NCBI GenBank assembly: GCA_039545335.1
Contig: BCIN01000003.1
Coordinates: 1,240,001-1,303,384 of the forward strand
Origin: Kondoa subrosea
Taxonomy: Eukaryota
DNA length: 63,384 nt
Direction: 5' to 3'
Shown in pieces: positions 45,564 through 56,521 of the stretch. The translations under genes were made by a program, and so were the position numbers. Position 1 is the stretch's first letter, and every line of letters starts with the position of its first letter. The notes beneath the pieces are model-generated. The model was not told the origin of the DNA. It did not search any database and saw only the letters and a program-made list of their open reading frames with translations.

Positions 45564-45605
45564 CAATTGGTCATGATAAGCAAAGGCAATGTACATTGAT
45601 CACAT

Positions 45606-47489
45606 TCAATTCAAAGCATATTTAGTAGTGCATACTCTGTCGTGAACATATCTCTGCAATCCATGATCAGGCAGTGTTGGCAGCACTTTGGATGATTGTA
45701 CCTTCAATACTGGCTCGTGTCTTTCTTTCGGCAGTAGCAGTATGTACTTTGCGTCCAAATAAGCTTGTCGAAAGACGATTGGTATATTTGCTAAACGCTG
45801 TCGCAAGCTGATGCAGAATCAAGACGATCCCAGATTTAGAGACGAAGAAGCTCACTCTGCGTACATGCCTTGCTTATATCCATAGCAGTATCCAGTATTG
45901 AAAGTCTTAGAAGCAGGAGATGAACGACGTAGAGCATTCAGCACTAATCTGTAAGCAGCTGAATCGACAGTAATCTGGAAATGGTCAACGATATGAAGAA
46001 AGGAGCATGCATCTGCGGCTTGTATCAGCTTTACAGCAGTAAGGACGATCAAAAACCTTTCCTTGTAGCCGAATGACATTGGCTCCAGACAGGTTGCTGC
46101 GAAGTTGGCCATCTGGAACTATCTCATCTGTACCAGTATAGATAGATCTAGGGAATAGTCAGGGAATAGTCAACACCGGAGGAAGACGAAAAGCTCGCGT
46201 TGTTGGGACTAGAGCTCGAGCATTTGCGCCATTCTGAGCTTGCAGATATTTTGAGCCAGGAACCTGCTGCCATATTGCAGGATTACAGCCTCCGTATAGT
46301 AAGCCAAGAACTTGACAAGCGAAAGTCGCTCTAGCTGTACCATGAAAATCGCCGCTAATCAAGTGTATTAGCGTTCATCAGAGGTGTAGGCAGAAGTATG
46401 CTTGCGCAAGAGCAATATAGTGGTATACCAGCGGTCGTGTAGATGGCCAGTACTTCAAGGTCCATTGAATCGTCAATCCGCCGCTTTGCGAATGGCCGAT
46501 GAGCGATACTTGATGGGTCTTGCTTTGTAGAGCTAGATGATGTATCGCAAATGATATGTATCTGTTGAGGCTACGTCAGTGTATTTATCAAGGGACTTGG
46601 ACGTCCACGCACTCTGCTGATATTTGAGCATCGCCCAAAGAGCGATCGGGTAAATCAATCTATTTAACTCTGATCATGGTTGCCGGCCAGCATTTGATCA
46701 GAAAACTCACCCAGCATACATCATAACCAGATCCATGGGTATCATCAGGCAATAGAGAGGTATATGGCCCGCCTTTCCAGGTTCTAATAGTTTGATCAGC
46801 ACCATAGTGCGATTCGAGAGCCTTCAGACTCACTCTGCTCCGGTAGATCCAGTACCATGCACCAGGAGTACAATACCGCCAGCTTTACCTTGAATACCAA
46901 GTGGACAAGTGATCGTACTCTCGTAAAAGTAAGACGGTAAGCTGAAAGGAGCATCGGCATACAGGGAAAGATCTGGTTGTACGGTATCGCTCTTGTTCCA
47001 AGAATGGGTCGTTTCCGATATTGACGAAGCTTGAGCGCGATTTTGCATAGGTGTTAGGAACAAAGGATCTGGATATTGCGAGATCAAAGTCCGAAGAGCA
47101 CTAGATAGTAGAAACAGGATAGGAGGCAGTAAACAAAACACAAGAGTAGCGCTGTACGATGAGTAGGCGCGGTTTCTGTCGACTTTGAACAAGACTCGAG
47201 AAACAGTCTTCGGATCTTTAACATGATCGAGCTCTCCTAGCAAGACTTTATGCCTGATAGGCGATCTCTGGAAGATATTAGACCAGCTTCAATGACCAAC
47301 GACAATAAGCAAGAATACACGACTGACTAGCGTTATGGCAAGCTGAGAGACAGTCGCATAGTCATCGACAAGCAGTCCCTCCTGTTCGCTGGCGCCTGCT
47401 GACTGATTCTGGGGCGCGTCTGTAGACAAGACGGCGTTTGATACGGCCGCAGACCTGGATCGTCTCTTCAAAGAGGTATTCTTCTGCAT
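45606..47489 (-). CDS. Lipase B (CALB)-like alpha/beta hydrolase with N-terminal TM segment
   Basis: VLLVHGTGSTGAE, GDAQISAE, GHSQSGGLTIQW.LKYWPS, LA|GDFHGT, C.PAIWQQ..GS.YL. One GC-AG intron. Confidence 0.82.
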
Positions 47490-48209
47490 GCTTTTTTATC
47501 GTTGGTGGTTTAACAGAGGAACAGAGGAACAGTTATCAAGCTCTCAAAGTCCAGGGCGCAAAATGCCTGAAGCTAGCGGTAGAGGAAGAGATGGTCATGG
47601 TGCTGGTGAAGTAGGATCGTGATGCTATGAGCGAGAACAGCCTTCGAAGATGTCTTCTGGTTGAGAAGTCCGTAAGCACGCAAGGTAGAGGATATAGGAT
47701 CCTTGGGAAGGAGGTATCGAGAAGCCCTAGACCAAAAAAACTTTGCATCAACTACCCGATCTTTGTTTCAATTCGAGTCGATTGCGAGATCCTACACCTC
47801 TGACGAGAAAATTGAGAAGAAGCACAGGGGAGAATGTGACTAAGGTTCGGATTTAGCAGTGATGAAGCGCAAGGTTAAATCGACTTCACACTAGGTTCAG
47901 CCTTGCTCTCGACCATTTCGACAAAGATGTACAGAGTTCTGGAGTATGCCACAAATATATCGTGCAGCAGCAAAGGACTGATCCCATAACGCAGGCTGGA
48001 AAGAAACAAGAGACTTCTGGACAAGGAAGCGAAGCGAGAAAGTTATTTATCGACATTACCGCCTGAACAGCGCAAGGAAGCCTATTTCGAATGGCCAAAC
48101 AAGAAGAATATTGTAGCTGAAGCCTTGCAGAAACCATGCGAGCAGATTGAAGTCGTTGAATTGGTCAAAGACTCAGAGCGCGAAGTGAGATTTATGAGAT
48201 CATGTAACA

Positions 48210-49990
48210 ATGTCATCGCGAAGGACTGATAGCTTCATGCAGACCAGAACTGTGGAGCTTGCAGAAGAACACCCTCGTAAAGTGAGAAACAGCAAATTCA
48301 ATGATTACGTAATTCATCTTCGCAACAGAGACGCAAGTTGGATCCAGCCGACCCGTGGGGTTTTGAGAAGCACCTTCCCGGTAAGCAATCTATATGCTCT
48401 CGTCAACAAGAAATTAAGTCAATGCTTTAGGCATTACGACTCAGTTTCCAGCTCTCACGCAACGAAAGTAAATTTCGTCTTGTCGACCTTGAAAGATGCA
48501 AGCTGAAGATCTTCTAGCTTCTTCATTATTCAGCTTCAGTACATTCCTATCTCTCTCGTCGTACAGTACTGACACCATCGTAGCTATGCTACAGCTACGC
48601 ATTACGACATCCGCTTGCAGTGTTCGGAAGCACACGTTACTGGACAACCTTGTATCATCTGCGGAGGTCAGTGCGTGACACTGTCAGTATAATGGCTCAA
48701 TCCCAAATCCCTGCAGATGCTGTTCATCCCTCGAAAAATGGTAGAGCTCCTGGAACAATCAGTTTTGCGGTACCTCGAGGTCTCTCGGATTTACAGCACA
48801 AGAGAGTCCGACTTGCTGTAGAGGTATGTATTCGATTGACCAAAAGACGCTGCCCTCGCTCTGAAATTTGGCAGACTGAACTTCATCAGATCCCTTACTC
48901 CGTTCACGAAGGCTCAGGAATCGGATCAACTATGCTCGTCTGCTTTTCTTCATTGAATAGATTCGACGTAAAGCTAACTCTAGGCTTTCGTAGTGGGATA
49001 TTGGCACCTACAAGCTAATTACTCCTTATTCGAGCAAACGAGACAAAGGCGCCGATACGTCAGACGAAGATGACGATGCAGATGATCAAGAGCAAACACC
49101 TTTATATGGAGGTCGAAAAGGCATGAATCACGAACGAGGTCTCGCTAAACTCTACAAGGGAAACACCGAAAAAGCAACTTTTTCTGTTGAGCTCAAGGGT
49201 AAGAGATACCACATGCGTCTCACCTTCTTCCATCCCAAGACAAGCTCTCAAATGAAAGTATGCATCCTTTGTCTATTATCTACATTACCTAAATTGATGT
49301 TAATGAATTCAAAACAGTACGTCAAACAGAAATGGACAGGAAGACAAACCTCTAGGCGCAATTGGTTGATGTGAGAAATGGTTTTCGCTACATCTTTGTT
49401 TCCTGTCTGACAGATACTTTCAGTCAGCTCGCTAATCCACTTGTGAAGGATGGCGAACGCCTCAACGCCGAAGATAAGAGTATTGGAGATGTGTCGATTG
49501 TCACTGGACGTGGGTACTCTGTGTTGATATCTGCTCTTATTATTCATAACACTAAAAAAGGACCTATTGCAAGCTATCGAACTGGAGAACAAACTTTTAC
49601 AAGACTTTCTGATGTGTATGAAGGATCCAAGATAACCGACATCCGCAATGTGTTTATGCAAGGTAGAGTAACAATCTACTCCAAAGTACACGATCTCATG
49701 CTGCTATGTAGGTCCCGATAAGAAGACTTACGAGATTAGAGATCTCCTCAGTAGCGGTCTTCTGGATGCGCAGCAGGTTCAACAATTGATGGATGATCCC
49801 AAGCTCGCTCAGATTGTTAGCAAGAAGTCGATGCCCACCATACCGAGTGCTGGCTTGGGACTGGGTGCATGTGAGCGCTACTAATCTTGCATGCCTTCGA
49901 ATCGAGCTAACGCACATCGAAGCTGGCACTTGCGGTGGCCAGATTGATTTTGGAGAAGAAGAATGGGATGAAGATTCCGTATGGGAGTAA
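48210..49990 (+). CDS. Stand-alone LigD-type 3'-phosphoesterase (PE) domain protein
   Basis: Spliced: ...NFFIIQLH|YATATHYDIRL...SFAVPRG...RLAVE|TELHQIPYSVHEG...GSTML..WDIGTY...SIVTGR, matching the LigD PE signature. Confidence 0.78.
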
Positions 49991-50198
49991 GCTCTAGAGA
50001 CAAGGTCAATGAGACATCCTCGATCGAAAGCATTAATGAGCTTCTCCGGTCGAGTACGGATCCATTGATTTAACACGCTGAACAAACTAGCATACTTCGT
50101 ATGTCATAGCAGGCATGCCACTCGTTCCGATTTTCCGACCTTCTCGCTGTTTGCGGGCACCTTGCTTCTTTCTTTCGCAAACAATCTCTTGCATTGAT

Positions 50199-52426
50199 AT
50201 GGACGAAGTAGAGAAACTTCTTGAGGCCAATTTCAGAGCTACAGCCTCTACCGGCGCAGACTCAGACGTGAGTTTGCCATTTTCTCGAACTTGCTTCACT
50301 TTCTTAGCCAACACACATTTAGGCCAAATCTAGAGACCGTGGCTCTCGTTCTGAGTAAGTCTACAGCGCTTCATTCCATTTCTATGTAGGCTTATGCATT
50401 TATTTGGCAATCAGAGACCGTTCTCCTGAATCTAGATCTACTCGTCGAAAGCACCGCAGTCGCTCGAGAAGTCACTCTAGAGATCGCTCAGAAGGTGGCC
50501 GCTCTTCGCATCGCTCGAGTCGCAGAGAAAGAGATCCTAGTCCTAGAGGTTCGGCAACTGGAGGTTCGGATGGAGGTCGCTCGAGAGGATCAAGACGAGA
50601 TGACAGAGATCGAGATCGTGACCGTGATTATCGAGACCGCCGTCGTGATGATCGGGATGACAGACGCAGGTTATATCGAGACGATAGAGACTCTAGAGAT
50701 AGAAGGTGTGCTCAATCATGTCCCTCTGTTATTGGGCTGATCTCTGTCATCAGACGTGATACACCTCGGCGTAGAAGTCGCTCCAGATCACCACCTAGAC
50801 CTCGAAGCCCAGTTCCACCACCGAGAGAGCAATCGCCAAAGTGAGTTTCTGCTATGAGGTGAATTTTGATTGGCGCTAACAGGGCGATAGACTGACTGAG
50901 GAAGAACATGAAATGCGTTCCATCTTTGTGTCTCAGCTGTCTGCTCGTGTTGCCGACCGCGAACTTACGCAATTCTTTGAAGCTCATGCAGGAAAAGTCA
51001 GGGATGCCAAAGTCATCGTAGACCGTATCTCCAGGCGATCGAAAGGGTCAGTCAACAAGATCTTATCAGCAGCTTGGGCTGATCTGAAATATTTCAACAA
51101 ATAGTGTTGGCTACGTTGAATTTAAGGAACTTGAGTCTGTCAATAAAGCGCTTGCACTCACGGGCACCAAATTGCTCGGTATCCCTGTCGTGGTTCAATA
51201 TACTGAAGCTGAACGCAATCGTCAGGCTCAAAACAACGCTCCCGCGGCCGAGAACGCGAATATTGTCATGTCAGTCGTTAGCTGTCTTGTTTGTTTCAAA
51301 CTAAAATCGGCTTGTCTTTGACAGTTTCCCTGGCTCTGATGCCAAGCCTAATGCTCCTATTCCATACAACAGGCTATACATTGGCTCCTTAAACTTCAAT
51401 TTGACCGATGCCGATGTCAGGCAGGTTTTCCAACCGTTTGGCCATGTTGATGTCGTCGATCTGCACCGAGACCAGCTCACTGGCAAGTCAAAAGGTTACT
51501 GCTTTGTTCAGTAAGTGGCATTACGGGAAAGATGAGATTATGCTCATCGATCCATTTTTCTATCTCATAGATTTAGGTTCCACGCCGATGCAGTGCAAGC
51601 TTTGGAGAAGATGAACAACTTCCCTCTTGCTGGGAGACCTGTGAGTCACACTTGCCTCAGGAGAGTGCGAAACAAAATGGACTCAAATGTTTAGATGCAG
51701 ATTAAATGCGGTCTCGTTACTGAAAAGATGACTTTGATGGCTAGAAGCGATGGTCAAACCAGTTCTAACCTGGAAGAAAGCTCTGGTAAGCTTCATAAGG
51801 GTTCTACGGGCTTACGTTTCTGATCGTTTTTGCGAATCAGGCGGTACTCTGAGCGGCATCTCGCGCATCGAGCTGATGCAGAAGTTGGCTAGACAGGACG
51901 GGCCAGTGCCTACTCGACAACTCAATGAGATTCCAGCTGTGCCAATGTCAGTAAAATCGACACTTCTATTTCTTGATAGCTAATTGTCAATGTGTATTAG
52001 GTGGAAGCCAAATATTCCTTCTGCGAAGTCCAAATGTGTATTGTTGAAAAACATGTTCGACCCTAAGGAAGAAACTGAACCTCATTGGGATACTGAACTT
52101 CGTGACGACGTCAAACAGGAATGCATGGGCAAATATGGTCAAGTGAGGGATATTTACATTTTACCCGAATCAGAGGTGGGTCCCGATGTCTGTTGCAGGA
52201 GGACTTATGCTTACGTGTAATTCAACAGGAGGGCGATATCTATATCAAGTTTGATACTGAAGTTACTGCAGAAAGAGCTATCGCTGGTCTTAATGGTCGA
52301 TTTTTGTGAGTGTTGCTCTCAAGTGGTTGTATCTTGCTGACGTTTCGCTACAGCGGAGGCAAGCAAGTTTCTGCTCAGTTCAGTCCAGATGCAGTCTATG
52401 AAGCACACAGGCCCAGCAGACGATAA
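50199..52426 (+). CDS. RBM39/CAPER (rsd1-like) splicing factor
   Basis: RS/RD-rich N-terminus, RRM1 (RSIFVSQL...SKGVGYVEF), RRM2 (RLYIGSLNFNL...SKGYCFVQF), UHM (CVLLKNMFDP...LNGRF). Confidence 0.9.
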
Positions 52427-53991: not shown

Positions 53992-56521
53992 GTGGCTTCT
54001 TCTCTCCTTACACGCCTTCAAGGCAGACTTGTTGTTTTCCCTCGTTCTTCTTTTGCTTCCTTCTCTACTTCTGTTCCTGCATTCAAGTTCAAGTATTATG
54101 CCCTCGCACGACCAAACAGTGGTCAGCCAAGAATAGTCGAAAGTTGGAATCAAGCCAAGCAACTGATTGAAGGTGAGCTACATCTCTCTGCCTTCTGATC
54201 TCAAAATACAAGTCTGAAATGGTATAGGCGTATCCGGTACCTTTCACAAAGGTTTCCTGACTCAAGAAGCTGCTCAAACATGGCTTAAAGCGAAAACTTC
54301 GGCAGCTACTTCGAAGAAGCGAACGAAATCGAAAGGGAAGCGATCAAAGCAAGAGTCTACAGATACATCTATAGAATATACGATACCCGGATTAGGAAGA
54401 TCTACTACTGTTGCTGAAGCATTGGTACCCGCTGAAACATCTATTGTCTTGACTCCTCAGCAGCAAGAGATACTGGATGTGGTACAGAAAGGCAAGAGCA
54501 TTTTTGTGACTGGCTCAGCTGGCAGTGGGGTGATTCATACGATTTCAAATTTGATGATGACTAATGACTCTGCAGAAATCTGTGCTGCTGCGAGAAATCA
54601 TCCTAGCCTTGAAAGCTAAATATCCTCTTCCTCAAGAGGTCGCCATCACAGCATCTACTGTGAGCTTCTTCTATGTTTCGGCTTATTTGTAAATTTGATC
54701 CTTCTTCGAAGGGAATCGCGGGATTGAACATAACCGGCCAAACTCTTCATCGCTGGGCTGGACTCGGCCTGGCTATACAACCCGCGTCCTCGCTTCTGTT
54801 TCGGCTCAAGCAGCCTACGTCTTCGGTAGCTCGAAAACGCTGGAGGAATTGCAAAGTCTTGCTCATTGACGAGATTTCTATGGTTGATGCAAATCTGCTT
54901 ACTGTAGGTTCTTCCCTGTTCCTGCGCTTCTGATGGCCAAATGAAATACGTCGTAGAAACTCGAGGCTATTGCAAGAAGCATTCGTGGATCATCGCTACC
55001 CTTTGGAGGCATACAAGGTAAAAGGTTCCAACCAGTCGTTTGGGCACAAACTGATTGCACATCAGTAATTGCGTGCGGCGACTTCTTTCAATTGCCGCCT
55101 GTTCCAGATGGAGATGCAATGGCTACACTAGCCTTTGATTCGCCTGCCTGGAAATTCGTTTTCAAGAAGATGTATAGCTTGAAAACAGTCTGTGAGTTGT
55201 TTCCAAGTCGACGAAGGTTCTTCTCATATGAGTCCAAAGTTCGTCAAGCTGATCCAGCCTTCGTGACCATCTTGAACGAAATGAGACGAGGAAACCTTTC
55301 GCCAGAATCGATCAATACTCTAAAATCGCTTGATCGACCGGTTCACTACGAAGATGGTATCGGTCCAGTCGAATTATATCCTACTCGAGCTGAAGTTAAT
55401 GCTGCAAATAATGCTCGGTTGGTACAACTTCCGGGCGAAGCTAGACATTTCGTCGCACAGGACAGATTTGGCACTTTTCTGAAGACAAACAAGACAATGA
55501 CCGAAGCAGAAAAGACCAGGGCGTTGCAACTCAAATTAAACGGCGTAAATTTTGAGCAGCCTGAACTTGGAACGGAGCTGAAGTTGCTTGCTGTAGAGCA
55601 CCATTGGACCTCGAGAAGTCACTCTTCGGGTTGGAGCCCAAGTGATGCTGTTGAAGGTATGATGAGTCCAACAAAGAGAATCTAGTAGCTGAACATCGTG
55701 ATTCAGAATCTTGCAAACAGTCAACTCTGTAACGGCTCGATCGGCCAAGTTATTGCGTTTCGAAGCACTGCAGATAACATGACAAGTCAAGGCTTTGACA
55801 AGATCATCACTCAAATTGCTCAATCTGAGAAGACGGCACGAAGCGAGAAGGAAGAAGCTCTTCGCGAACAGCAGCACAGCGATGGTCCTCCTGCAAAAAA
55901 TTCTACAGACGTAAGCACTAGTCTCTGATTATGGGATGAGGCTCAGCCTGCTTCAGTATCCTGTTGTCTACTTTCCTTCAACTCAGCAAGTCATTTGTTT
56001 CCCGCCAATGGTCTTTTCGATCGAGAACTCAGGTCGGCTTTCTATGAAACCCAAGATCTACAGCTGACAATGTAGTAGAGGGAGCAATCGAGGCAATGCG
56101 AGAGCAGATACCTTTGATGTTGGCATACGCTTTGTCGGTACATAAGTCGCAAGGCCAGACATTGGAAAGAGTGAAGGTGGGCGAAACATTCTAGCGGACT
56201 AGAAAGCTAACCATAGCATCGTTTGAATCAGGTTGATCTAGGTCGCACTTTTGAAAAGGGACAGTAGGTCACAACTACTTCCGCTTTTTGATTAGCTCTT
56301 ATTCGATTGCAGAGCATATGTCGCGCTCTCGCGTGCCACCAGTCTGGACAGGCTCGAGATCAAGCGCTTCGATGCATCTAAGGTGCTGGCTCACCCGAGA
56401 GTTACGTACGTATTGCAATTTCTTCATGGCATCTGACTGACTGTATGATAGCGAATGGTATACAAAACACTTTCCAGAAGATTATGGTAAATCAAGACAG
56501 GACAATGCTCTCGCAACCTAG
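53992..56521 (+). CDS. PIF1: Pif1-family DNA helicase with N-terminal RNase H1-like hybrid-binding domain
   Basis: [68 protein letters not shown]. 5' start uncertain (no in-frame ATG). Symbol denotes family, not proven orthology. Confidence 0.88.

Follow-up and report, generated by a model that had tools for sequence, protein, structure and literature searches.

A chromosomal gene of the fungus Kondoa subrosea for a probable stand-alone LigD-type 3'-phosphoesterase

The 3'-phosphoesterase (PE) of bacterial LigD proteins is a metal-dependent beta-barrel enzyme that also trims 3'-ribonucleotides (PMC8656161). In the Pseudomonas enzyme, His42, His48 and Asp50 bind manganese, Arg52, His84 and Tyr88 are required for both PE activities, and Gln40, Glu82, Lys66 and Arg76 are accessory residues (PMC3300020, PMC3082917, PMC8656161). 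Mutagenesis identified His42, His48, Asp50, Arg52, His84 and Tyr88 as essential (PMC3300020). Arg14, Asp15 and Glu21, located in a disordered N-terminal peptide (N-peptide), are required for the 3'-phosphatase reaction only (PMC3300020; PMC8656161 prints 'Arg15'), and the C-terminal tail tucks under the sheet (PMC3300020). The equivalent His/His/Asp metal site and Arg/His/Tyr phosphate site of archaeal PEs were proven by alanine scanning (PMC3082917), and stand-alone homologues exist in eukaryal proteomes, an observation credited to Nair et al. 2010 (PMC3082917, PMC3300020, PMC8656161). Here we analyze a putative gene of this family in Kondoa subrosea, located in a 63,384-nucleotide (nt) stretch of contig BCIN01000003.1 (assembly GCA_039545335.1, forward-strand positions 1,240,001 to 1,303,384), which we refer to as the window; all coordinates below are window positions.

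The locus as a whole is best explained, with a probability of roughly 0.8, as a nuclear chromosomal gene of an intron-rich fungus for a stand-alone LigD-type 3'-phosphoesterase with an intact active site. Within the family, we regard the predicted protein as a new and divergent representative of the eukaryotic LigD PE branch, which is known but uncharacterised.

The predicted protein and its active site

The predicted plus-strand gene consists of 14 exons and 13 GT..AG introns that together leave one open frame of 463 amino acids (aa), closed by a TAA stop codon at 49988-49990. Stop-to-stop frames on this strand are short between 47.9 and 50.0 kb, and the frame changes every 40-260 nt, marking the region as eukaryotic and intron-dense. 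The predicted features are the following.

Exon 1, 47927..47943, plus strand: 17 nt, aa 1-6, with the probable start ATG at 47927; placed by splice and start signals.
Exon 2, 47995..48184, plus strand: 190 nt, aa 6-69, a charged N-terminal extension matching 0 Pfam families.
Exon 3, 48243..48281, plus strand: aa 70-82, ending P-R-K; codon log-odds +0.224.
Exon 4, 48329..48380, plus strand: aa 83-100, R-R-K-L-D-P-A-D-P-W-G; completes PRKRRKL and carries the D-P-x-G of the PE N-peptide.
Exon 5, 48431..48467, plus strand: 37 nt, aa 100-112; both joins keep the frame.
Exon 6, 48518..48538, plus strand: 21-nt micro-exon, F-F-I-I-Q-L-H, with Q117 and H119.
Exon 7, 48584..48666, plus strand: aa 119-147, Y-A-T-A-T-H-Y-D-I-R-L-Q (H125, D127, R129) and the first half of a Cys/His-rich insert.
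Exon 8, 48717..48823, plus strand: aa 147-182, the end of that insert, then S-F-A-V-P-R-G (R167) and K-R-V-R-L-A-V-E (R178), from the profile alignment.
Exon 9, 48875..48937, plus strand: aa 183-203, T-E-L-H-Q-I-P-Y (E184, H186, Y190) to G-I-G-S-T-M-L.
Exon 10, 48994..49257, plus strand: aa 204-291, W-D-I-G-T-Y, an acidic insert and the F-S-V-E-L-K-G-K-R strand region, from alignment to the S. meliloti PE.
Exon 11, 49318..49370, plus strand: aa 292-309, R-R-N-W-L, aligned as the last barrel strand (bacterial R-T-N-W-L-L).
Exon 12, 49424..49662, plus strand: aa 309-389, the C-terminal tail motif S-I-V-T-G-R, then an extension without explanation.
Candidate intron in exon 12, 49510..49560, plus strand: 51 nt, in frame; its removal would leave 446 aa.
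Exon 13, 49712..49870, plus strand: aa 389-442, C-terminal extension with no significant family.
Exon 14, 49923..49990, plus strand: aa 442-463, the tail E-E-E-W-D-E-D-S-V-W-E and the stop codon TAA at 49988-49990.

To place this protein we built our own profile (not Pfam's model) from 66 bacterial PE domains of three phyla, 10 of them from Sinorhizobium meliloti and other proteobacterial sequences and 56 from PF13298 matches in further genomes. The bacterial sources were S. meliloti pSymA LigD, which scores 159 bits to PF13298, and 80 proteobacterial loci (the best 80 of 585 relatives, among 595 pattern stretches); the further PF13298 matches came from two more phyla, with a match in 5 of 5, 19 of 151 and 54 of 151 genomes. 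The spliced protein scored 43.5 bits against the 66-domain profile (E 2.6e-12 over 2002 targets), 36 bits higher than the best of 2000 shuffles (7.1 bits), and 31.8 bits against a narrower profile of 81 proteobacterial PE sequences. BLASTP against the PE of S. meliloti pSymA LigD gave 47.0 bits (E 2e-10) with 37 of 108 positions identical (about 34%). This alignment crosses the junctions between exons 5/6, 6/7, 7/8, 8/9 and 9/10 and thus lends independent support to those joins; over the 8/9 and 9/10 junctions the alignment is gapless.

The unspliced pieces are far less informative. Pfam and PDB queries were unspliced translations of single exons or open reading frames (ORFs). With the exon carrying H-Y-D alone, Pfam LigD_N (PF13298) reached 12.9-13.2 bits (E 0.1-0.13, profile positions 5-20) against a cut-off of 31.1, and the other PE exons taken singly had no LigD_N match up to E 10. 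Single-exon phmmer searches of the PDB returned no significant match, and bacterial PEs run against the window with tblastn gave E values of at least 0.1 at the locus. Neither a ligase (PF01068) nor a primase-polymerase domain was found in the exon or ORF translations of the locus at Pfam E values up to 1-10, and the extensions at either end of the PE, about 79 and 125 aa, are too short to leave room for one. An earlier, preliminary description had recognised here a stand-alone PE hidden by its small exons and free of ligase or polymerase domains; the 43.5-bit profile match, the 14-exon frame, the intact active-site residues and the exon translations agree with it on each of these points.

Alignment revealed the expected catalytic and accessory positions at Q117, H119, H125, D127, R129, R167, R178, E184, H186 and Y190 of the 463-aa protein, within the motifs F-F-I-I-Q-L-H followed by Y-A-T-A-T-H-Y-D-I-R, S-F-A-V-P-R-G, and R-L-A-V-E-T-E-L-H-Q-I-P-Y. 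H119, H125 and D127 correspond to the metal ligands His42, His48 and Asp50; R129, H186 and Y190 to the phosphate-binding and catalytic Arg52, His84 and Tyr88; and Q117, R167, R178 and E184 to the accessory Gln40, Lys66, Arg76 and Glu82. The spacings (+2, +6, +2, +2, then +6, +2, +4) are those of Pseudomonas Q40/H42/H48/D50/R52 and R76/E82/H84/Y88, so that all nine residues of the motif string initially reported are in place, and the S. meliloti PE has the same residue pattern at an offset of 3. We examined conservation in a set of 257 bacterial PE sequences that is mostly proteobacterial and non-independent, so that "fixed" here means fixed in that sample. The three metal ligands are His in 257, His in 257 and Asp in 256 of the 257, while the Lys66 position, Arg in the fungal protein, is Lys in 147 and Arg in 110.

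Both ends of the domain are recognizable as well. On the N-terminal side, R-K-R-R-K-L-D-P-A-D-P-W-G is aligned to bacterial K-R-D-F-K-K-T-R-E-P-S-G, and the N-peptide of the Pseudomonas chain is R-K-R-D-F-R-Q-T-P-E-P-S-G. On the C-terminal side, S-I-V-T-G-R follows N-W-L-I at a distance of 23 residues, as bacterial S-V-A-S-G-R follows N-W-L-L at 22; the Pseudomonas crystal construct ends D-S-V-L-S. Because the N-peptide K-R...D-P-x-G and the C-terminal S-[IV]-x-[ST]-G-R are both kept, the whole PE module appears to be present, and the core, predicted to form the eight-stranded beta-barrel of a LigD-type 3'-phosphoesterase, would span about aa 80-338. In a MAFFT alignment of the N-peptide, a short region where the alignment is soft, R83 aligns with Arg14, R84 replaces Asp15 and D90 replaces Glu21.

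The same N-peptide bears on a motif for which a domesticated nuclear enzyme had been suggested. The join of 48281 to 48329 gives P-R-K|R-R-K-L at aa 80-86. The classical monopartite nuclear localization signal (NLS) has the pattern K-K/R-x-K/R, and P-R-K-R-R-K-L fits it by eye, making it a candidate NLS that overlaps the conserved PE N-peptide. Three of its five basic residues (R-K-R) already occupy the same place in the Pseudomonas N-peptide. Since the patch aligns to the conserved catalytic N-peptide of bacterial PEs, it appears largely inherited and not a product of domestication. The most parsimonious reading is an inherited catalytic peptide with a change of Asp-Phe to Arg-Lys, which may have an additional role in nuclear import. 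Splicing does create the NLS-like motif as first described, but for the most part the motif belongs to the catalytic N-peptide of the family itself. The reading as a domesticated nuclear enzyme is kept as a candidate.

Exon model and splice signals

The 13 introns measure, in order, 51, 58, 47, 50, 50, 45, 50, 51, 56, 60, 53, 49 and 52 nt. Ten of them have G at donor position +5, the acceptors are CAG in seven, TAG in five and AAG in one, and T-R-A-Y is present in 11, in nine cases 11-24 nt before the acceptor. Codon usage was scored as log-odds, with the 15 longest other open frames of the window as the training set. On this scale the spliced coding sequence scored +0.176 per codon (80 bits in total) compared with -0.18 and -0.46 for its other two frames; as references, the introns of the model average -0.36 and the 15 training ORFs range from 0.08 to 0.42. 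Three long opposite-strand ORFs, two over 48210-49990 and one over exon 2, scored about 0, and the pair at 49251-49703 and 49699-50103 was rejected on this ground as shadows of the plus-strand gene. By these measures the predicted locus is confirmed as a real spliced gene and not a chance pattern.

The smallest internal exon carries one of the metal ligands. Between exons 5 and 7 lies a gap of 116 nt (48468-48583), the sole outlier among gaps of otherwise 45-60 nt, and it contains an acceptor (..TCTTCTAG), a 21-nt exon and a donor GTACAT. Exon 6 divides the gap into introns of 50 and 45 nt. Read in the frame of exon 5 it gives F-F-I-I-Q-L-H, in agreement with the bacterial strand consensus f-v-v-q-k-H of the profile, and exon 7 supplies the last base of the His codon CA|C. 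Inclusion of exon 6 adds 10 bits with each profile, from 33.5 to 43.5 and from 21.8 to 31.8. The in-frame join of Q-L-H to H-Y-D originally proposed is thus found in the sequence, with the His codon spanning 48538/48584, and H119 depends on inclusion of the micro-exon. We also considered 48468-48583 as a single 116-nt intron, which is in frame and reads ...L-T-Q-R-N-Y-A-T-A-T-H-Y-D with Asn in place of His42; it was rejected for the size fit of exon 6 and the 10 bits. Skipping of exon 6 keeps the frame and replaces Q-L-H by Q-R-N, with a Gln coincidentally staying at the Gln40 position. A gene caller that skips the micro-exon would therefore still report an open frame, yet annotate an apparently dead enzyme.

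Two exons upstream of 48210 probably belong to the gene, with the start at ATG 47927 and a protein of 463 aa. The base at -3 of this ATG is A, and its frame is closed upstream by a stop at 47876. The intron at 47944-47994 (51 nt, GTATGC..CAG, TGAT at -13) joins exons 1 and 2 in frame, and that at 48185-48242 (58 nt, GTGAGA..CAG, TGAT 13 nt before the acceptor) joins exon 2 in frame to ..T-R-T-V-E-L-A-E-E-H-P-R-K. The less probable alternative is a start at ATG 48210, as in the preliminary description, giving 405 aa with the micro-exon; 47995-48184 would then be 5' leader sequence or a small upstream ORF of its own. ATG 48210 is indeed in frame with exon 3 through an uninterrupted M-S-S-R-R-T-D-S-F-M-Q-T.., and the two upstream introns are backed by sequence signals alone. 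Against it, the frame at 47990-48229 is open for 79 codons and would run into ATG 48210 without a spacer, an apparently coding frame abutting a start codon. Exon 2 scores +0.223 per codon over 63 codons (other frames -0.23 and -0.39) versus -0.193 for 48210-48242, the first 11 codons from ATG 48210, and the two introns that connect the upstream frame are of the usual size, each with TGAT at -13. In the preferred model, starting at 47927, positions 48210-48242 would be intronic and the upstream exons would add about 69 residues, so that the start at 48210 is probably wrong.

Two further introns were weighed. Within exon 12, 49510-49560 looks intron-like in its ends (GTGGGT..AAG), a TAAC 11 nt before the acceptor and a G+C content of 0.33, and coding-like in its codon log-odds of +0.163; we consider its removal doubtful. 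An intron at 48620-48744 (125 nt) would remove the Cys/His-rich insert and gives a profile score of 43.6 bits even without the micro-exon. It is nevertheless judged unlikely, being far beyond the 45-60 nt size range, with a GTGTTC donor and without T-R-A-Y in the last 50 nt before the acceptor, and the second half of the insert has codon log-odds of +0.46. Neither alternative would affect the active site. An intron within the acidic insert, sought by hand, was rejected, its sole plausible donor at 49059 leading to frame shifts and stops.

Three inserts interrupt the predicted barrel. Insert 1 adds about 24-27 Cys/His-rich residues in the hairpin after the H-Y-D-x-R-L strand. It contains C-x3-H-x5-C-x2-C-x4-H (aa 132-150; 48621-48666 plus 48717-48730), five possible zinc ligands in 19 residues across an exon junction, which may be no more than a loop or may form a small metal-binding knuckle next to the active site. 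Insert 2 places about 35 mostly acidic residues after W-D-I-G-T-Y, with codon log-odds of +0.553 per codon, and insert 3 adds about 11 residues ahead of N-W-L. The protein is completed by an N-terminal extension of about 79 aa, up to the N-peptide, and a C-terminal one of about 125 aa, beyond the tail; the acidic insert (core aa 224-237 plus flanks) and the C-terminal extension had both been noted before and are both present. Searched exon by exon, the two extensions had no significant Pfam or PDB match, and exon 13 gave sub-threshold Pfam scores only (FluMu_N 14.0 bits, LepB_N 11.4 bits). In exon 12, a Smr domain (PF01713; 13.6 bits against a cut-off of 25.7, E 0.076, profile 23-64 of 77) was rejected, its matching T-G-R-G stretch being better explained as the PE tail S-V-x-S-G-R. 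The C-terminal E-E-E-W-D-E-D-S-V-W-E (49955-49987) is strongly acidic, has two Trp and resembles a short linear binding motif.

Predicted function and alternative readings

If the protein works like its Pseudomonas and archaeal homologues, one Mn2+-type metal would be bound by H119, H125 and D127 and the scissile phosphate by R129, H186 and Y190. Homology also suggests that Q117, R167, R178 and E184 act as accessory residues and that R83 and D90 of the N-peptide contribute to the 3'-phosphatase reaction. At a DNA or RNA-tipped 3' end such an enzyme is predicted to remove a 3'-phosphate and to trim 3'-ribonucleotides, leaving a ligatable 3'-OH, and it would act without a fused ligase or polymerase. 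The activity, metal, substrate and cellular site of action are inferred by analogy with these enzymes.

A tentative and less probable alternative keeps the gene as described and has its product act on RNA ends (in RNA repair or in the processing of 2',3'-cyclic or 3'-phosphate ends) or outside the nucleus instead of on nuclear DNA breaks, with PRKRRKL serving as N-peptide only. The alignment of PRKRRKL with the bacterial N-peptide (RKRDF in Pseudomonas) is consistent with this, as is the action of PE enzymes on 3'-ribonucleotides; the archaeal CkoPE prefers single strands (PMC3258152), and no Ku, ligase or polymerase gene was found among the 24 long ORFs scanned at 36-62 kb, where small-exon genes could be missed. 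However, nothing in the locus points specifically to RNA, and the five-basic run R-K-R-R-K fits the textbook monopartite import pattern. In the cited papers, all characterised family members were studied as DNA end-healing enzymes (PMC3300020, PMC3082917, PMC8656161).

Several observations weigh against an active PE. One of the three inserts that interrupt the barrel, of about 24-27 aa, adjoins the metal-binding strand. The equivalent of Asp15, linked to the 3'-phosphatase reaction, is Arg in the fungal protein (in the bacterial set, Asp 224, Asn 5, Ser 4, Lys 3, Glu 3 and gap 15). R-L-E has become R-L-Q (Glu in 257 of 257 bacterial sequences), E-D-H-P has become E-L-H-Q (Asp in 256, Pro in 252), and F-E-G has become H-E-G (Phe in 257 of 257). 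A His-less isoform is possible, since skipping of the micro-exon keeps the frame. In addition, the exon model is inferred from sequence signals, and no eukaryotic relative was found in any search, which is weak evidence given that the queries were unspliced pieces of 73-125 aa.

These substitutions and the hairpin insert, together with the in-frame exchange of Q-L-H for Q-R-N, would also suit a weakened or inactive derivative, such as a 3'-end binder or a regulated pseudo-enzyme, produced either by substitution or through an isoform that lacks the Q-x-H strand. We regard this as improbable. All of His42, His48, Asp50, Arg52, His84 and Tyr88 are kept (PMC3300020), the changed positions are absent from the lists of residues essential in mutagenesis, and the bacterial set is narrow, so that what is invariant in it may vary among archaeal or eukaryal PEs. 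It is very unlikely that the resemblance is due to chance or that the locus is the dead remnant of a bacterial insertion: single exons are statistically weak (Pfam E 0.1 at best, tblastn E at least 0.1), but 14 exons share one frame, the profile score stands 36 bits over the best of 2000 shuffles, the active site is intact, and in its codon usage and intron style the gene resembles the host genome.

A more elaborate proposal, on top of the active stand-alone PE favored here, is highly speculative when its parts are taken jointly. The PE would be the 'heal' half of a bacterial-style heal-and-seal route apart from Ku/Lig4, the Cys/His insert a zinc knuckle gripping the nucleic-acid end, and inclusion or skipping of the micro-exon an on/off switch. 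If this were true, splicing of the exon with the catalytic His would toggle the enzyme.

Genomic setting and comparison with known enzymes

Of the 24 long ORFs at 36-62 kb, 11 have a Pfam family. Neighbors over the Pfam cut-off include a SacI-domain phosphatase, ornithine carbamoyltransferase, ribosomal protein S25 and Not3/Not5; Acyltransferase, PIF1-like helicase and Ssb-like OB were sub-threshold. These eukaryotic housekeeping neighbors argue that the gene is not bacterial contamination and is resident on a normal fungal chromosome. The nearest upstream gene is on the minus strand (ORFs to about 47495), leaving a shared promoter region of about 430 nt. This divergent neighbor (45600-47500, minus strand) reads hydrolase-like in ..L-V-H-G-T-G-S.. 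and ..G-H-S-Q-S-G-G.., in two ORF pieces with no Pfam match at E 0.001. Directly downstream, at 50359-50841 on the plus strand, a 161-codon frame with R-S and R-D repeats has an extremely high content of Arg, Ser and Asp, resembles RS-domain splicing proteins and has no Pfam match at E 0.001. Farther along the plus strand, adjacent ORFs at 54218-55682 gave Ssb-like OB at 19.9 bits (cut-off 24) and PIF1-like helicase at 23.3 bits (cut-off 25.9), and possibly represent a split helicase gene of the Pif1 family or Helitron type.

Searches for relatives were made with pieces of the gene. Word-index searches with exon 10 (49 candidates) and exons 8-9 (16 candidates) ended with none scored. With the bacterial PE profile and two pieces of the window, all 8000 of 8000 candidates were scored; the 120 matches listed were all PF13298, 65-97% identical to the S. 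meliloti query and with rhizobial or Hyphomicrobiales names, and are uninformative on eukaryotes. A metagenome scan gave 598 pattern matches with 0 confirmed, the ESM Atlas no usable match to exon 12, and exon tblastn against plasmids 49 records with no LigD, all at E values of at least 5. phmmer with exons 8-9 against 1.84 billion representatives returned 3 matches with E up to 0.001, which were rejected as spurious, being internally repetitive proteins without PE motifs. A comparison with the other stretches of DNA in this survey gave no look-alike. Either the protein is quite divergent or it was simply beyond the reach of piecewise queries; the blanks speak for divergence at most, not isolation.

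Among enzymes with the same expected product, a 3'-OH from a 3'-phosphate DNA end, yeast Tpp1 and PNKP are functional analogues, whose fold and mechanism are unrelated to those of PE. Closer in architecture are the stand-alone archaeal PEs, CkoPE (Candidatus Korarchaeum) and MbaPE (Methanosarcina barkeri), which like the fungal protein are single-domain enzymes with no fused ligase. The PDB chains 3P4H/3TA5/3TA7, 3P43 and 5DMP, which we take to be the CkoPE and MbaPE entries, match our PE profile. These archaeal proteins are minimal, with 118-169 residues in the solved chains, whereas the fungal protein is about three times longer, and CkoPE is without the N-peptide that the fungal protein keeps.

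The eukaryal stand-alone homologues (Nair, Smith and Shuman 2010) are PE-only proteins like the one predicted here. The family had initially been called patchily reported in fungi and little characterised. Homologues are indeed known, and a full-text literature search, with most subscription journals outside its coverage, found no study testing a eukaryotic PE; the occurrence itself is not new, eukaryal homologues being on record since 2010 (PMC3082917, PMC3300020, PMC8656161). The value of the locus thus lies in an annotation lesson and in a candidate for the first biochemical or genetic test of a eukaryotic PE, and not in a new class of system.

The most detailed comparison is with bacterial LigD PE, namely PaePE of Pseudomonas aeruginosa (PDB 2LJ6, 3N9B, 3N9D) and S. 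meliloti pSymA LigD. Motif order and spacing are common to both sides: K-R...[ED]-P-x-G, Q-x-H, H-Y-D-x-R, S-[WF]-A-V-P-[KR]-G, R-L-A-V-E-x-E-x-H-x3-Y, W-D-x-G-x-[YW], N-W-L and the S-V-x-S-G tail, and the one-metal mechanism predicted for the fungal protein is the same (PMC3082917, PMC3300020). In contrast to bacterial LigD, the fungal protein lacks ligase and polymerase domains, no Ku was found among the 24 long ORFs at 36-62 kb, and its gene is eukaryotic with 13 introns; relative to the bacterial PE domain it is about 34% identical over the 108 aligned residues, carries three inserts and long extensions, and is changed at otherwise fixed positions. The PE enzymes of bacteria and archaea have become well understood, and this locus offers a concrete putative fungal example with a worked exon model.

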